A stretch of DNA of 64,000 bases, taken from IMG/VR virus record IMGVR_UViG_3300032287_001974, positions 21,633-85,632 of that record; one strand, given 5' to 3'. Under the pieces are notes generated by a model, which was not told the DNA's origin, made no database searches, and saw only the letters and a list, made by a program, of their open reading frames with translations. Shown one piece after another: positions 9,098 through 48,581 of this stretch; within the stretch, counting starts at the first letter, position 1, and each line of letters opens with the position of its first letter. The translations under genes were made by a program, and so were the position numbers. Source of the stretch: a virus.

Positions 9098-9697
9098 ATG
9101 GCAACCACCCAAAACGCCAAGAGTAGCATTCAACGCTTCTCTAAACTGGCTACTGATCCAATCCGTAATTTTAGATTCCTTGTGGAATTTCAGACTACCG
9201 CGGATGGCAACCCAGCTGCCAACACCTTCATGAACTTCAGTGGAGGCTTCACTCAGATTTCAGGTCTGAACATCACTACCCAGAGCATCAGCTACCGCGA
9301 AGGCGGCATGAACACGACTCTGCACCAGGTTCCTGGTCAGACCTCGTTCCAGCCAATCACCCTTCAGCGTGGTGTTATCTACGGTAAGGATGAGTCAATC
9401 AACTGGATGAAGACCCTGTTCGCAGCTGCTGCTGGCGAAGGTATCCCGGGTTCTGGCGGAAAGAACTTCCGTTGCAACCTAGTCATCTACGTCCTTGACC
9501 ACCCAATTACCGCTGACCCGCTAATCACGGCTAATGACATCGTGTCTACAAAGGCATTTAAGATGAAGTTTAAGGTACACAACGCTTGGATTCAGGCGCT
9601 GAACTTTACTGACCTTAACGCCCAAGACAACGCGCTTATGTACGAGACCATGACTCTTGTGCACGAGGGCCTTTCGGTATCTTTCGTAACTCAGTAA
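9098..9697 (+). CDS. Tail tube protein (T4 gp19-like)
   Basis: DPIRNFRFLVE, YREGG, ITLQRG, ETMTLVHEG. Confidence 0.92.
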   Translation: MATTQNAKSSIQRFSKLATDPIRNFRFLVEFQTTADGNPAANTFMNFSGGFTQISGLNITTQSISYREGGMNTTLHQVPGQTSFQPITLQRGVIYGKDESINWMKTLFAAAAGEGIPGSGGKNFRCNLVIYVLDHPITADPLITANDIVSTKAFKMKFKVHNAWIQALNFTDLNAQDNALMYETMTLVHEGLSVSFVTQ

Positions 9698-9739
9698 TAA
9701 ATTCTGGTAAACTAATAAATAACTAATTAGGAGCATTAC

Positions 9740-10543
9740 ATGTCTGAAGAGATTTTCACAAGCAATACAACGGCAATTGAATCAGCTATCGCTGAGGTCA
9801 ATGATACGCCGGAAGTAGAGATCGAAACCGTTGCACCATCTAATACTGACGTGCTGCTCCCCGGCGGATTCATCGCCGGGGACGGCTCGGTAGTAAAGTA
9901 CGCAGAAGTGCGTGAACTTAACGGAGTTGACGAAGAGGCAATTGCCAAAACCGGAACTCCAGGCAAGGCTCTCATGGCTATGCTACAGCGAGGTCTAGTG
10001 TCTCTTGGCGGCGAAAAAGCTACCAAAGAGGACCTAGACAAGATGCTTAGCGGAGACCGTGACGCAGTGCTTATTGGTATTCGTCGAGTAACCTTCGGTG
10101 ACACTATTGACTTTGAGTTCCCTTGCGAAAACTGCAAGACAGACTTAAACGTAACCGTGAACTTAGGAACTGACGTCCCTTACAAGAATCTTGAGGACCC
10201 TCAAGAGGGACGCACGTTTGTGTACCAGTCTAAGACCAGCGGTGAAATTAAAGTCTCTTTGCCTACTGGCCTTGTGCAGCGAAAGCTTCTTGAGAACATT
10301 GATAAGAGCCGACCTGAACTAAACACCATCCTTTTGGCTGGCTGTGTAGATTCAATTAACGGCAATGGTTCTCTGGGAGCTAGCTCTGTTCTAAAGCTTG
10401 GTATGAAAGACCGAGAGCAACTTGTCACTGAGATCATTACCAGAACCCCAGGCCCACGCCTTGGGGAGGTGAAGACGACCTGTGAGGCATGTGGCGAGGA
10501 TATTCCTATGCCACTGTCGTTGGCAGATTTGTTTCGTCTATAG
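9740..10543 (+). CDS. Tail assembly chaperone / baseplate hub assembly protein (T4 gp26-like)
   Basis: VRELNGVDEE, GDRDAVLIGIRRVTFG, two CxxC motifs; between tube and TMP. Confidence 0.75.
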   Translation: MSEEIFTSNTTAIESAIAEVNDTPEVEIETVAPSNTDVLLPGGFIAGDGSVVKYAEVRELNGVDEEAIAKTGTPGKALMAMLQRGLVSLGGEKATKEDLDKMLSGDRDAVLIGIRRVTFGDTIDFEFPCENCKTDLNVTVNLGTDVPYKNLEDPQEGRTFVYQSKTSGEIKVSLPTGLVQRKLLENIDKSRPELNTILLAGCVDSINGNGSLGASSVLKLGMKDREQLVTEIITRTPGPRLGEVKTTCEACGEDIPMPLSLADLFRL

Positions 10544-10691
10544 AGACGAAGATTACGAAGCACTACTCGACCAGTATGAAGCACTAACCAGATCATTTCC
10601 CGGATGGACGCTCTCTGACATCAGAGAGATGTCTGTAAGAGAACGTTTAAATTGGTTGTCTCGTGCATCCAGAAATAGGATAGGTCAGTAA
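10536..10691 (+). CDS. Small tail chaperone segment (T4 gp51-like); start uncertain
   Basis: YEALLDQYEAL..FPGWTLSDIREMSVRERLNWL; stop coupled to the TMP ATG; no convincing canonical start. Confidence 0.6.
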   Translation, partial: VYRDEDYEALLDQYEALTRSFPGWTLSDIREMSVRERLNWLSRASRNRIGQ

Positions 10692-13066
10692 TGTTAGGTT
10701 TACCGGTAGGCGGTAGCAGCCCTAAAAAGGCTAAGCTAGTCGCTGACCTTGCCGTTGAGTATACCAAGCTCAACGCTATCCTTGAAAAAACGGCAACGCT
10801 TTCTGGCACCATCTCTAAAAACCTTAAAAATTCTAAAGGTGGCGGCCCCGGCGGCGGCGCTATGCAATTTGGCAGCAGCCCGCCCCCTCCTATAGCCGGT
10901 GGCTCTCCTCCCCCAGGCAGCTCTGCTGTAGTCGGTACCGGCCCTGGTGGCGGTGGCTTAACCACTCCTGTAGGAAACACTCAATTTAAGAGCCCTGGCG
11001 CTAGCAGCATGAGCTGGAGCGAAGTAGGCAAGAATGCTATGCGCTCTGTTGCCGAGGGTATTCCCGGCGCACTTGCCGCAGGTGGCTCAGGATTTTTACA
11101 GGCTATTAACCCTAGCGATTTTGTTGCCAACGATATGGCTCGTCGATCAATGGCTTTTTACCAGGGAATGGGCGGACAAACAGGGGCCGATAAAGCCGGC
11201 AAGCAAATTGAAAATATGATGAACGCTGGAACCGCTACCAGCGCTCTAGATGGTGCTAACGCTGCCATGATGGGTGCCAGTAATGGCCTTATGCCAGGCA
11301 TAGGTGGTGGAGCATACAGTGGTGCTGCTGGCGTTTCTAACATTATGCCGGGTGTTGGCCTTGAGGGCGGTATGGAAGCTCAGGCTGCCCTTAATAAAGC
11401 TAGTTCTGTAAACAAGCTTCGTATGATCGGCATTCAAGTTCGTGACGCTAACGGTTTGCCTAGGGCCGTAGAGGATGTTGCACGTCAGCTTTGGGGCCAA
11501 CTAAAGGGCATGACCGGCGGCGACGGCCAGGGCTCTATTACTGAGGAAGACCTTACCTTTGCTTTGCAATCAGGTAACTCACTTGACTCAATGCTTAACC
11601 AATACTTTGGTAATGACCCAATTCTTCGTCAGTCAGTTATCCGCTACCTGTACCAGTTTGCTTCAGGAAAAGGCACAAGTAAAAAAGACCTAGAAAAAAC
11701 TAACGCTAACCCCGCTGTATCCCAATCAGCAGGTAGACGAAACGCTGCCGCTTACGGCGCTATTAATGCTTACACTACCAAGGGCGCGCAGGGGGTTACA
11801 GACGCTAACGATATGGTCGCTCAGCTAGCTAGAATCGCAACTTCTTTGGAATTCCTGCTGGGCCCTGTAGTCCAGTTTACTACGTTTATGCAGACGCTTA
11901 GCGGCGGAGCCAACGGCGGTATCGGAAACCTAATCGGTGGTCTTGGAAACCTAGTTGGTCCAGCCATTGGAATGGCGCTTACAAAAGCATTTGGGCCTGT
12001 AACTAACTTTTTTAAAGGCATGTTTGGCGGTGGCACGGCTGCTGCCGGAACAACTGCTGCGGGCACATCCGCTAAGGCTGGTACAGCTGCAGCCAGTAAA
12101 CTAGGCACTAGGGCAGCGGGTCTTGCGGCTGCGCCATTTATTACTAACGTCAGTAATATGATTGGCCTTGCTACTAGAGACAAGAATGTTCCGCTAACTG
12201 AAATCGAAAAAGCTACGCTACAGCATGAGTCTGGAATTAGAGCCGCAGATGCTATGTATATACCTTCGGGCAAAGATGGCAAGCCTTGGTGGGAAGACTT
12301 TGGCGGCGGCGAGGGCGGCGACGGCCAGCTTTACGGCATGGGCGATGGTGGCACCCTTGCAAGCCCTACCGATGGATACAGCAACAACATTACTAGTCGC
12401 TGGGGCGAGATCCGCCACCTAGTTATTGACGGCAAGAAGGTCACTACTAAGCCGCACGGCGGCATGGATATTGGTGTTCGTGAGGGTACATCTGTAAAGG
12501 CTGTTAAAGACGGAACAGTTATTCACACCGGATATAACCCAGACGGCTTTGGTAATAACGTTATTATTCAGCACGACGATGGTTACCAAACTGTTTACGC
12601 CCACCTTAGCTCTAAGTCAATGCAGAAGGGTGACAAGGTAACTGCTGGTCAACTTGTTGGGTTGAGCGGTAACACCGGTTTCTCTAGCGGCCCTCACTTG
12701 CACTTCCAGGTACAAAAGAACATTAATGGTAAAACTTATGACCCCGCTGCTTACCTATCCGGGTCTAAGGACGTAACGGCTTCTGGCGTACACTCAGGCA
12801 CTCCGGAAGACGCGGTTTCTAACGCGTTGTTCAGCTCTAGCGCCGGGTCTCTATTCTCTGGAGTAAAGCCCAAAGATGGCGGCGGTGGGTCTGAGTCTAG
12901 CGACCCTACTATCCTTCCAGTCGGGTCTGGCAGCCGTGGAGGAAATAACGTTACGGTAAACATCAACGTACCTGCCAGCGCTTCAATTAACGAGCAGACA
13001 CTGGCTCGGGAAGTAAAAAGAATTCTTCAGGAAGATGAACGAGTAAAGATGGCGGTAAATAGATAA
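10691..13066 (+). CDS. Tape measure protein with C-terminal M23 peptidase
   Basis: Ala/Gly-rich helical body; HGGMD, YAHL, GPHLHF M23 motifs. Confidence 0.85.
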   Translation: MLGLPVGGSSPKKAKLVADLAVEYTKLNAILEKTATLSGTISKNLKNSKGGGPGGGAMQFGSSPPPPIAGGSPPPGSSAVVGTGPGGGGLTTPVGNTQFKSPGASSMSWSEVGKNAMRSVAEGIPGALAAGGSGFLQAINPSDFVANDMARRSMAFYQGMGGQTGADKAGKQIENMMNAGTATSALDGANAAMMGASNGLMPGIGGGAYSGAAGVSNIMPGVGLEGGMEAQAALNKASSVNKLRMIGIQVRDANGLPRAVEDVARQLWGQLKGMTGGDGQGSITEEDLTFALQSGNSLDSMLNQYFGNDPILRQSVIRYLYQFASGKGTSKKDLEKTNANPAVSQSAGRRNAAAYGAINAYTTKGAQGVTDANDMVAQLARIATSLEFLLGPVVQFTTFMQTLSGGANGGIGNLIGGLGNLVGPAIGMALTKAFGPVTNFFKGMFGGGTAAAGTTAAGTSAKAGTAAASKLGTRAAGLAAAPFITNVSNMIGLATRDKNVPLTEIEKATLQHESGIRAADAMYIPSGKDGKPWWEDFGGGEGGDGQLYGMGDGGTLASPTDGYSNNITSRWGEIRHLVIDGKKVTTKPHGGMDIGVREGTSVKAVKDGTVIHTGYNPDGFGNNVIIQHDDGYQTVYAHLSSKSMQKGDKVTAGQLVGLSGNTGFSSGPHLHFQVQKNINGKTYDPAAYLSGSKDVTASGVHSGTPEDAVSNALFSSSAGSLFSGVKPKDGGGGSESSDPTILPVGSGSRGGNNVTVNINVPASASINEQTLAREVKRILQEDERVKMAVNR

Positions 13067-21473: not shown

Positions 21474-22058
21474 ATGAGACGAGTAACCATCGCGGTTATA
21501 GGTAACGCAAAAACAACCCGAGCCAACCTAGAGGCTCTAATCAGCGACGTAGTTGAGTCAGTAGATGAGGCTACCATCGTAACTGTGTACAACGAAGCTC
21601 CGTCTGAGGGGCTTATCTGGGCAACCCAGTACGCGCAGGACAAGGGCATAGAGTCCCTACAGTATCCAGACAACAACTATGAAACTCTAGTGGCTGACCA
21701 CAAGCGGGACGAACTTCGCTTTTTTATGCTTTGGTCCGATGAGGACCCTGAGTGCCAACTAGCTGCTTCTATGGCCCAGGAGCACAACATCCCAGCATAT
21801 GACCTAACTGATGGTCTTATGTTAATTTCCCTAAATCAAGCCCCAATCTCCAGGCCGGCTAAGACTGAACCGCCAGTTATTGAGGCTGTTGTAAACCCCG
21901 CACCAACCCAACAACCGGAGCCTGATGTAGAAGAACCTGTAGAGGAAGGGCTTGAAGAGTATGATCTCGGAGAGGTCATGACCCTGGCTCTTGAAGAGGC
22001 TGGTAAAATATTTGCTCGGTCATTTGCTGCCGAGTTCATGAGACTTCTAAAGAAGTAG
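21474..22058 (+). CDS. Hypothetical protein (SLOG/DprA-like fold possible)
   Basis: TIAVIGN N-terminus; GGAGG RBS. Confidence 0.55.
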   Translation: MRRVTIAVIGNAKTTRANLEALISDVVESVDEATIVTVYNEAPSEGLIWATQYAQDKGIESLQYPDNNYETLVADHKRDELRFFMLWSDEDPECQLAASMAQEHNIPAYDLTDGLMLISLNQAPISRPAKTEPPVIEAVVNPAPTQQPEPDVEEPVEEGLEEYDLGEVMTLALEEAGKIFARSFAAEFMRLLKK

Positions 22059-29173: not shown

Positions 29174-29247
29174 CGCGGTGTGGGGCAGCTCGGTAGTCCG
29201 CTAGGCTCATAACCTAGAGATCGCAGGTTCAAATCCTGCCACCGCAA
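29174..29247 (+). tRNA. tRNA-fMet (CAU), initiator type
   Basis: Cloverleaf; C1:A72 mismatch, G11:C24, loop CTCATAA, TTCAAAT T-loop; no encoded CCA. Confidence 0.92.
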
Positions 29248-29263
29248 CGAAAGAAAGTGCAAT

Positions 29264-29401
29264 ATGGCAAAAGGAAAGGGCGGAGGCCCAAAGCCACCTG
29301 TTAAGGGCGGTAACTCAGACCGCAAGAACGGTAAAGCTGACAAGAAGTCTCCAAAAGTCTTTGACCCAGTAAAGCGCCGTCTTGTAACTAAAACTAAATA
29401 G
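29264..29401 (+). CDS. Small basic protein (MAKGKGGGPKP...)
   Basis: 45-aa ORF between tRNA and tmRNA. Confidence 0.5.
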   Translation: MAKGKGGGPKPPVKGGNSDRKNGKADKKSPKVFDPVKRRLVTKTK

Positions 29402-29407
29402 TGACTA

Positions 29408-29738
29408 GGGGATGATCGGTTTCGACGGTCATTCGTAAATTGGTGAAGCAAGCAGAGATAGCGGAGTCTCTTAAAACCGCTAAAAAAATAAATGCTGAAT
29501 CTCGTTCTGCATTCGCACTAGCTGCCTGATCGTAGTTAGTACCCCCAGGAAAGCAGCAGTTCTAGCTGGGCACTTGGGTTTTAAATAAATAGAACAACTT
29601 GTATCACGTCCATGCTGGAGACGTAAAACTGAAGCACCACAGGATGTGGCAGTTCGGTCCTGGAAATATAAACTGCCTAAGCTTGTAGAAGAACAACACA
29701 CTAATGATCGGACCGGGGTTCAATTCCCCGCATCTCCA
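29408..29738 (+). ncRNA. ssrA: tmRNA
   Basis: GGGGATG..GGTTTCGAC 5' end; GGGGTTCAATTCCCC T-arm and CATCTCCA 3' end; G3:U pair; tag ORF 29494-29529 AESRSAFALAA*. Confidence 0.95.
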
Positions 29739-29800
29739 CGCTTGCAGATAAAGGGAGCGCCCAGCGGTCTGCCCGTCCTAGGCAACGGAATTCTCCCAAT

Positions 29801-29872
29801 TGATCACTAGCTCAACGGCAGAGCAACGAGCTGTTAACTCGAAGGTTCCTGGTTCGAATCCAGGGTGGTCAG
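29801..29872 (+). tRNA. tRNA-Asn (GUU)
   Basis: Cloverleaf, loop CTGTTAA, G73. Confidence 0.92.
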
Positions 29873-29874
29873 CC

Positions 29875-29948
29875 CGCGGGGTAGGGTAGTTAGGTAATCC
29901 GCCAGCTCGACTAGCTGGAAATCGTGGGTTCAAATCCCACCCCCGCAA
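29875..29948 (+). tRNA. Atypical initiator-type tRNA with GAC (Val) anticodon
   Basis: CGCGGGG/CCCCGCA acceptor (C1:A72), GGGT/ATCC D-stem, CCAGC/GCTGG stem with loop TCGACTA, GTGGG-TTCAAAT-CCCAC, A73. Confidence 0.8.
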
Positions 29949-29949
29949 C

Positions 29950-29984
29950 AAAAAAGCCCCAGGCTATAAACCTGGGGCTTTTTT
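29950..29984. terminator. Bidirectional intrinsic terminator
   Basis: AAAAAAGCCCCAGG / CCTGGGGCTTTTTT between convergent units. Confidence 0.85.
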
Positions 29985-29993
29985 ATTTAGTTA

Positions 29994-31072: not shown

Positions 31073-31308
31073 TAGTCCTCATCCTCCTTACTGTTCTTAT
31101 TAGATGCCTTAGCGCCAAAATAGCCGCCGAGAATACCTATGATTCCACCTAGGGCAGTCTGCACCAAGGTCATAACGTCCGAGGAGACCTCTACAGGTTC
31201 CCCAGTGGTTTGGGTCTCAATGGCTGCTACAACATAGTCGCCAACGATTGCAAATAGAATTGCAACCATAACGCCAGCCGCAAGGATTAGCATTGTTTTT
31301 TCTTTCAT
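31072..31308 (-). CDS. Small 2-TM holin-like protein
   Basis: Two TM helices, GGYFG, charged C-terminus. Confidence 0.6.
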   Translation of the reverse strand: MKEKTMLILAAGVMVAILFAIVGDYVVAAIETQTTGEPVEVSSDVMTLVQTALGGIIGILGGYFGAKASNKNSKEDED

Positions 31309-44458: not shown

Positions 44459-44791
44459 TCTACGGGTACCAGGAACCAAAACAGTCCCGCTTTACCAGAC
44501 TAAAAAGAAAGATAAGAAGATGGTTGAGATGCTACTAATAGCTATCGCTGTATTGTTTGTACTTGTTTTCCTAGCCGTTGTCACAATAATTGTTTTGCTC
44601 GGCTCCGCTATGCAGCTAGACCTGCACGATATGGACTACAACTACGATGACTAGATTTATGATCAAGTGCATTGGTGTCGGGGTGCTGTTCGTTGGCCTA
44701 GGGGGTATGGTAATTAATGGGCTAACCCTGACTAATCTAATATTAGACGCCGTAGGTATTGCCTTTATTATTATCGGAAGAGACGCGCCGG

Positions 44792-47412: not shown

Positions 47413-47940
47413 ATGTCCAATCCAAATCAGAATACCCAGAGCCTAGGTGCAGGTGGCCTTTACGGTACCTACACTAACTACGGTGGTGGCGGTACTCCAG
47501 TTGCGCGTTCTGAGATGGACTTCATGCGCATGGGTGTTGGCCGCGAGCCTAGCGCAGAGTACCCAAACGGTTATCTAGGTACAATTCGTTCACGCCGTGA
47601 CGACCGTGGTCGCCCTAACAGCGTATCTGAACAGGTATTGCAGGGCCTAAAGGTTCGCCAAACCCAGCGTGGTTACCAGCGCGGTGTTCACCGTGGTGAG
47701 CGAATTGATCAGAACGATTACTACCTACCAACAGAACTAAGTGCTGACCGCGGAATCCGCAGACAAATGTCAGCTGCACGCAAGGGCGTGCCAACCCCAA
47801 GATTTGCACCAGTGTTTGCGCTTGCCCCTGCCCCACACCTAGTGAATGACGGCAAGGCAAACATGCGTTCAAATGAGCCGTTTGAGATGAACAAAGTTCG
47901 TCAGTCACAGCTCGCCAACATGAAACCAAACTGGAGGTAA
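47413..47940 (+). CDS. Hypothetical Arg/Gly-rich protein
   Basis: PSAEYPNGYLGTI..YQRGVHRGERID. Confidence 0.65.
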   Translation: MSNPNQNTQSLGAGGLYGTYTNYGGGGTPVARSEMDFMRMGVGREPSAEYPNGYLGTIRSRRDDRGRPNSVSEQVLQGLKVRQTQRGYQRGVHRGERIDQNDYYLPTELSADRGIRRQMSAARKGVPTPRFAPVFALAPAPHLVNDGKANMRSNEPFEMNKVRQSQLANMKPNWR

Positions 47941-47943
47941 ATA

Positions 47944-48225
47944 GTCCCAGCATTAGTAGGATTGCTAGCACGAGGTGCAGCAGCAGTAGGACTCCGTGGC
48001 GCAGCCGCAGGAGGAGGAGCAGCCGCGGGCGGAGCAGCTGCAGGTGGCGGAGCCGCATCTGCAATCGGTACTGCGTCACGCGTCGCTATGTTTTCCAGCG
48101 CGCTTGGCGGCGGAGACGATAAGGAATCAAAAGCCCCGCCCTCAGATGCGGAACAGTACACAGCATCGGAACAAAACTCGGCAATTAGCCGTTCATCAGA
48201 GTTTAAAACGGGCGGAACTTATTAA
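47944..48225 (+). CDS. Ala/Gly-rich hypothetical protein; proposed GTC start
   Basis: GGAGG at 47933-47937, 6 nt before in-frame GTC47944; TAA coupled to next ATG. Confidence 0.55.
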   Translation, partial: VPALVGLLARGAAAVGLRGAAAGGGAAAGGAAAGGGAASAIGTASRVAMFSSALGGGDDKESKAPPSDAEQYTASEQNSAISRSSEFKTGGTY

Positions 48226-48581
48226 TGCCTAATACCCCAAACGGTAAGTATGGAATGCGTGCCTGGGACAAGCCAGTAGGCGTCCCAGCTCAAGCTGCAT
48301 ACCCGCCCCAGGCATACATCGGTCCTTTTGCGTCTAACCAAGAGCGTTTATTGTCACAATCAATGGAGATTGGTAATATGACCGCAGCAGAAATACAGCA
48401 ATACGTACGACCACCGCTGCCACAGGTGGAGCTATTCCCGGATCGTTATGGCTATACCCCGTTTGAGTACAGCATTGACGACATTGTAAAGGTAACTGGT
48501 CGTTCTAACGAGCGCACGGATTACTCGCAGATCCCAAACCCGTTGCAGTCTACTAGCCGCAACACGCTGGGTCAGGTGTAA
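48225..48581 (+). CDS. Hypothetical protein
   Basis: Coupled ORF. Confidence 0.6.
   Translation: MPNTPNGKYGMRAWDKPVGVPAQAAYPPQAYIGPFASNQERLLSQSMEIGNMTAAEIQQYVRPPLPQVELFPDRYGYTPFEYSIDDIVKVTGRSNERTDYSQIPNPLQSTSRNTLGQV

Follow-up and report, generated by a model that had tools for sequence, protein, structure and literature searches.

Where does translation of the small open reading frame (ORF) at 47944 begin, and with which tRNA? The window analysed here is a stretch of 64,000 nucleotides (positions 21,633 to 85,632 of IMG/VR virus record IMGVR_UViG_3300032287_001974), in which an in-frame GTC stands just downstream of a Shine-Dalgarno (SD)-like motif, at the place where a start codon would be looked for. 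On the prevailing view, start-codon identity in bacteria is set by a single initiator tRNA with anticodon CAU, and the only known initiation at unrelated sense codons is that achieved with engineered anticodon mutants. GUC has two mismatches to the CAU anticodon and, to our knowledge, is not a recognised natural start codon in bacteria. The same 85.6-kb phage contig carries both this GTC and a tRNA gene of initiator type with the anticodon GAC (Table 1). Initiation at GUC through that tRNA is, in our judgement, the best single explanation of the locus, and we give it about an even chance of being right.

The start region reads AAC TGG AGG TAA ATA GTC CCA GCA TTA GTA GGA TTG, and re-reading it bore out the anatomy described in the first-pass annotation: a strong ribosome-binding site aimed at an in-frame GTC, a frame closed by TAA, an ATA too close to the binding site at 3 nt from GGAGG, and no ATG until far downstream. 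The 6 nt between GGAGG and GTC, and the 5 nt found at the same place in the related sequences called clade B below, lie within the 5–9 nt that separate (A)GGAGG from ATG in the window's own genes, including the two put forward for comparison (7 nt at 9098 and 5 nt at 21474). The codon so placed is GTC instead of AUG, GUG or UUG; the only canonical starts of the ORF are TTG47962 and ATG48088. As had been claimed, TTG47962 has no properly spaced binding site, with an AGGA directly abutting it (0 nt) and GGAGG 24 nt away, unlike TTG starts elsewhere in the phage (e.g. 46385), which do have an SD. RNA folding of the start region revealed no significant structure (z of +1.2 in the window and −0.6 in clade B). 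The encoded protein is hydrophobic at its N-terminus and acidic in its C-terminal part. That earlier reading was nonetheless incomplete, missing the codons of the upstream gene, the hypervariable slot and a GTG in clade B, each of which is taken up below.

Table 1. Features of the small ORF, its start region and the two initiator-type tRNAs (window coordinates).
Feature	Position	Strand	Remarks
Conserved 175-aa gene	47413..47940	+	Function unassigned by searches; last codons TGG AGG TAA
GGAGG, Shine-Dalgarno-like motif	47933..47937	+	Built from the W-R codons of the upstream gene
Spacer TAAATA	47938..47943	+	Upstream-gene stop TAA (47938-47940) plus ATA (47941-47943)
GTC, proposed GUC start codon	47944..47946	+	6 nt after GGAGG; GTC in all relatives
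Small Gly/Ala-rich ORF	47944..48225	+	93 codons plus stop (48223-48225)
TTG, rival canonical start	47962..47964	+	Codon 7 of the open frame; without usable SD
First in-frame ATG	48088..48090	+	Codon 49; start in one public annotation
tRNA-Met(CAT), same initiator-type body	29174..29248	+	Comparison copy; missing from the relative L066
Initiator-type tRNA, anticodon GAC, proposed decoder of the GUC start	29875..29949	+	Identified by ARAGORN

The upstream gene is strongly conserved, with proteins 79–82% identical in six IMG/VR contigs and a dN/dS of 0.01–0.02 against clade B. Because TGG AGG TAA are its last codons, GGAGG and the closing stop are partly imposed by this gene; that GGAGG is dictated by a Trp-Arg pair, and that most GGAGG motifs in the genome are not ribosome-binding sites, both count against the GUC reading. 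On the other flank lies a conserved 118-aa gene (48225-48581). Searches of Pfam, PHROGs and the Atlas returned no function for the small protein or for these two conserved neighbours.

The small ORF occupies a hypervariable slot. Across 58 related IMG/VR loci, the 175-aa and 118-aa genes lie directly side by side or flank unrelated inserts of 40–550 aa, the ATG of which usually follows 4–8 nt after a GGAG or GGAA derived from W-K/R codons, as in TAA ATA ATG (locus L005) and TAA CTC ATG (locus L058). At the position of the insert ATG, the window has GTC. Viewed across loci L007–L064, the slot (47940-48225 in the window) is a hot spot of gene turnover, holding Gly/Ala-rich small proteins, Cys-rich proteins of ~300 aa, a 557-aa protein or nothing, and nearly all of these inserts take their SD from the last codons of the upstream gene.

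Homologues of the small protein are few (P0001–P0016). Clade A comprises the window and P0001/P0006 (87% identical), clade B comprises P0002, P0003 and P0007–P0014 (81–84% identical), and a distant type (L022, P0004, P0015 and P0016) is 23% identical. Scans of viral contigs with the window junction and with a profile of the small protein found nothing further, and by blastn the locus had no relative among cultured phages. An ATG opens the distant homologues, whose hydrophobic N-terminus (A-L-P-I/L-A-A) has about the length that a GUC start would give, and their 43.7-kb contig (G002) encodes no tRNA at all, not even where it is syntenic with the tRNA cluster of the window. Public annotations disagree over where these proteins start, with TTG called by JGI and ENA (P0001/P0006), the ATG at codon 49 in the Atlas and GTG in clade B (e.g. 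P0002).

For the junction itself, the window was aligned with three metagenome contigs of clade B (L075–L077; clade B contigs are 1.3–2.2 kb long), in which it reads CAG TGG AGG TAG TA GTC CCA GCA TTA ATA GGA TTA. These independent contigs all carry GTC CCA GCA TTA, which disposes of the possibility, raised in the first-pass annotation, that the GTC is a sequencing error. The clade B spacer, TAGTA, is 1 nt shorter than that of the window; the corresponding 1-nt gap at 47940 recurs in three runs from three studies (X2, X3 and X4), as read in their contigs. The stop codon consequently ends 2 nt before the GTC in clade B and 3 nt before it in the window. Four codons before the GTC and in frame with it, clade B has a GTG, which overlaps the TGG and lacks an SD. 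All pipelines annotate clade B from this GTG (M/V-E-V-V-V-P-A-L), and since that standard annotation makes the GTC Val5 of a GTG-started ORF, the clade B GTC needs no special explanation. In the window, a CTG that is also out of frame takes the place of the GTG; TTG47962, for its part, is confined to the window's clade, and clade B has TTA there. The two clades have no canonical start in common, but both have GGAGG-N5/6-TAGTC. A single indel between the window and clade B breaks the frame of the locus, and it falls between GGAGG and GTC, as expected if the stretch before the GTC is untranslated. Against a dS of ~0.4, the two sequences differ at 4 of 18 nt across the junction (47926-47943) and at 1 of 18 nt immediately after it (47944-47961). 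This pattern is the one expected under a GTC start with everything before it untranslated, and it is compatible too with a shift of the start from GTG to TTG in clade A.

Such a shift is the strongest alternative, possible but in our view rather doubtful. After terminating at TAA47938, ribosomes would reinitiate at TTG47962 or reach it by 70S scanning, and the protein would lack six residues of the GUC form and ten of clade B's GTG form; the GTC would then be the leftover of a former Val5 codon, its match to the phage tRNA a coincidence. TTG47962 is the first canonical start in frame, is the codon called by the JGI and ENA pipelines and belongs to a class of start that this phage uses elsewhere. 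It occurs in both known clade A proteins and so in the very clade without the GTG, as would be predicted of an enabling or compensating change. Set against this are its want of a usable SD, in which it differs from the other TTG starts here; the loss that it would entail of the hydrophobic N-terminus, which is kept in all homologues, the ATG-started distant ones included; the conservation of the 18 nt before it, which exceeds that of the junction; and the coincidence that it requires between GTC and tRNA(GAC). The GUC start proposed in the first-pass annotation stands as the best single account, one that several of the comparative data fit, but a shift to TTG47962 would predict this distribution of starts between the clades as well.

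The substitution pattern indicates that the small ORF is a real protein-coding accessory gene. Against clade B, its dN/dS is 0.12–0.17 in frame and >1.6 in the other two frames, and its internal indels (15, 42 and 3 nt) are all multiples of three. In the second clade A lineage, P0001/P0006, JGI and ENA assemblies show the ORF intact and unchanged in length. Constraint extends to the part before ATG48088 (47944-48087), with a dN/dS of 0.18–0.27 and an excess of synonymous changes (p = 0.006–0.012). Because this half evolves as coding sequence, translation must start well upstream of ATG48088, and we rejected that codon as the sole start, even though the Atlas annotates the protein from residue 49. 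Together with the two other ways of producing the protein with an ordinary initiator tRNA or with none of its own—a start at AUA47941 or a read-through fusion across TAA47938—we consider it very improbable. AUA is a known weak near-cognate start, but here it lies next to the binding site, as described above, and the codon is GTA in clade B. Fusion is suggested by the shared frame of the upstream gene and the small ORF in the window; we rejected it on finding the two in different frames in clade B, and no suppressor tRNA is encoded. About as improbable is a start lost in the window lineage, by a GTG-to-CTG change and the insertion of 1 nt, that left a decaying or barely expressed remnant: four changes within ~12 nt of the junction relative to clade B, among them the frameshift relative to GTG, and the turnover of genes in the slot speak for it, but the ORF is intact and constrained and its equal-length counterpart persists in the P0001/P0006 lineage.

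The first-pass annotation had also called for a genome-wide count of ORFs in which an SD precedes GTC. In the 85.6-kb genome, only one coding-strand ORF, the one at 47944, opens with a GTC that follows a strong SD after 4–9 nt, so the count yields a single good candidate, but SDs show no enrichment of GTC behind them (3 of 72). Orphan SDs stand before non-canonical codons in 27 cases, distributed over 12 ORFs. Among the 39 GGAGG motifs on the locally transcribed strand, a canonical start 4–9 nt downstream opens a frame of at least 40 codons in eight; 30 have no such start, and the remaining motif, at 31087, leads an ATG at a distance of 10 nt. The probability of an SD-GTC coincidence by chance is ~0.03–0.3, varying with the strictness of the criteria, and the coincidence exceeds chance only modestly. 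The weight of the case for GUC comes from the SD-GTC arrangement in combination with the tRNA and the comparative data, not from the statistics alone.

One weaker lead emerged at GTC 44484 (ORF 44484-44654), where AGGA is followed after 9 nt by GTC CCG and a Lys-rich leader precedes a 44-aa ORF with a single transmembrane segment. We set it aside as a second GUC start, given an adequate ATG at 44520 (itself without an SD) and no comparable relatives; five related contigs do not conserve the DNA of this ORF.

No gaps are needed to align the tRNA(GAC) gene with the tRNA-Met(CAT) of the window or with tRNA-Met genes of actinophages. Its best full-length matches in phages are tRNA-Met genes, at 76–80% identity over 95–99% of the length, one of which, in phage A3Wally, is annotated tRNA-fMet(cat). 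The acceptor stem, which starts CGCGGGG and ends CCCCGCA-A, has the unpaired C1×A72 seen also in the window's tRNA-Met(CAT), together with G2:C71, C3:G70 and A73, the determinants of formylation. In the D stem (GGGT/ATCC), G11:C24 provides the purine11:pyrimidine24 pair, as in the CAT copy, and the T-loop, TTCAAAT, is the same as in the matching tRNA-fMet genes. The anticodon arm departs from this pattern: the stem, CCAGC/GCTGG, contains A29:U41, G30:C40 and C31:G39, so that two of the three canonical G:C pairs are missing (the phage's CAT copy has two of the three), and the loop is UCGACUA, with an unusual C33 and U37, not CUCAUAA with its CAU. Positions 34–38 of the tRNA (GACUA) are complementary to UAGUC, at −2 to +3 of the mRNA, in both clades.

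In one relative, L066, all 75 nt of tRNA(GAC) are identical, while its flanking genes are 81–94% identical to those of the window. This contig has lost the CAT copy and kept tRNA(GAC), which points to selection on tRNA(GAC) for a function that the host does not supply; it stops short of the small ORF. Viral-contig scans with the 5′ half of the tRNA and with a generic initiator having three G:C pairs and a GAC anticodon gave nothing beyond L066, a scan with the anticodon arm gave L066 and three chance matches that are not tRNAs, and a scan of genome contigs for tRNA(GAC) gave no match. The region concerned (8273-9526 of L066, compared with 29174-29949 of the window) differs further in an extra tRNA-Trp(CCA) in L066, which keeps the tmRNA with the same AESRSAFALAA tag. 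Directly after tRNA(GAC) in the window (29950-29990) is a strong hairpin resembling an intrinsic terminator (AGCCCCAGG...CCTGGGGCT, then a T run), from which the tRNA/tmRNA cluster looks like one transcription unit.

From these features we infer how a GUC start might operate. GGAGG, which the upstream gene supplies in its final two sense codons, would place a 30S subunit 6 nt before the GUC; alternatively, the ribosome would be one that has just terminated at TAA47938. The tRNA(GAC), presumably charged with valine by the host ValRS and formylated by way of its tRNAfMet-type acceptor stem, would pair with GUC in the P site, perhaps aided by contacts of U37 with A−1 and of A38 with U−2, so that codon and anticodon loop would be joined by an extended 5-bp pairing (UAGUC with GACUA). 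Experiments support a pair between tRNA position 37 and position −1 of the mRNA (PMC10018350). Translation from the GUC would give a protein that begins (f)Val-Pro-Ala-Leu and whose production relies on the phage tRNA. The sequences establish the layout of the locus, the coding constraint, the differences between clades at the junction and the conservation of the tRNA, whereas charging, formylation, use in the P site, the N-terminus and the tRNA dependence proposed in the first-pass annotation are inferred.

The closest known system is the E. coli tRNAfMet mutant G34C36, with anticodon GAC, which is charged with valine, formylated, and both initiates and re-initiates at GUC (PMC2268962); re-initiation is efficient at a GUC just after an upstream stop codon (PMC2268962; Yoo and RajBhandary 2008). 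G34C36/GUC reporters are ascribed to earlier work (Wu and RajBhandary 1997, as cited in PMC2268962). The phage arrangement resembles this system in combining an initiator body with a GAC anticodon and in placing the GUC just after a stop. G34C36, however, is man-made, and its anticodon stem and loop are otherwise the native ones, with three G:C pairs, U33 and A37, whereas the phage tRNA(GAC) is natural and phage-encoded and has A29:U41, C31:G39 and the loop UCGACUA. Our literature searches turned up no phage precedent for a natural initiator tRNA that reads a codon other than AUG.

Ordinary non-AUG starts (GUG, UUG and rarely AUA, AUU or CUG), read by tRNAfMet(CAU), are likewise led by an SD, and TTG47962 belongs to that class; at the GUC, unlike those starts, a cognate tRNA is proposed instead of wobble. 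Translational coupling by termination and reinitiation offers a second likeness, in the stop codon a few nucleotides before the proposed start and in the SD inside the upstream gene, but known cases restart on AUG, GUG or UUG, not on GUC. A third is with phage suppressor tRNAs, which recode stop codons in late genes and act in elongation. There, as is proposed here, the meaning of a codon is changed and some genes are readable only with the phage tRNA; unlike them, tRNA(GAC) would act at initiation and on a sense codon.

That GUC naturally serves a freshwater actinophage as a private start codon, for an accessory protein of membrane type whose expression is gated by tRNA(GAC), is a proposition that in our estimate could equally well prove true or false. 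If true, it would be the natural counterpart of the engineered G34C36 initiator system and would mean that viruses can carry orthogonal initiation systems. The odd tRNA(GAC) would gain a concrete target gene, and synthetic biology a ready natural pair of orthogonal initiator and start codon. Gene finders would systematically mis-start or miss such genes, as may be illustrated by the three starts that three public pipelines give here.

A further GTC, at 10536, was considered and rejected as a start. It lies in the +1 frame of the tail assembly chaperone gene (9731-10543) and has no SD. That frame is open without a canonical start from 10473 to 10691, just upstream of the tape measure gene (10691-13066), and looks like the product of a programmed +1 or −2 frameshift near TTG TTT CGT CTA TAG.
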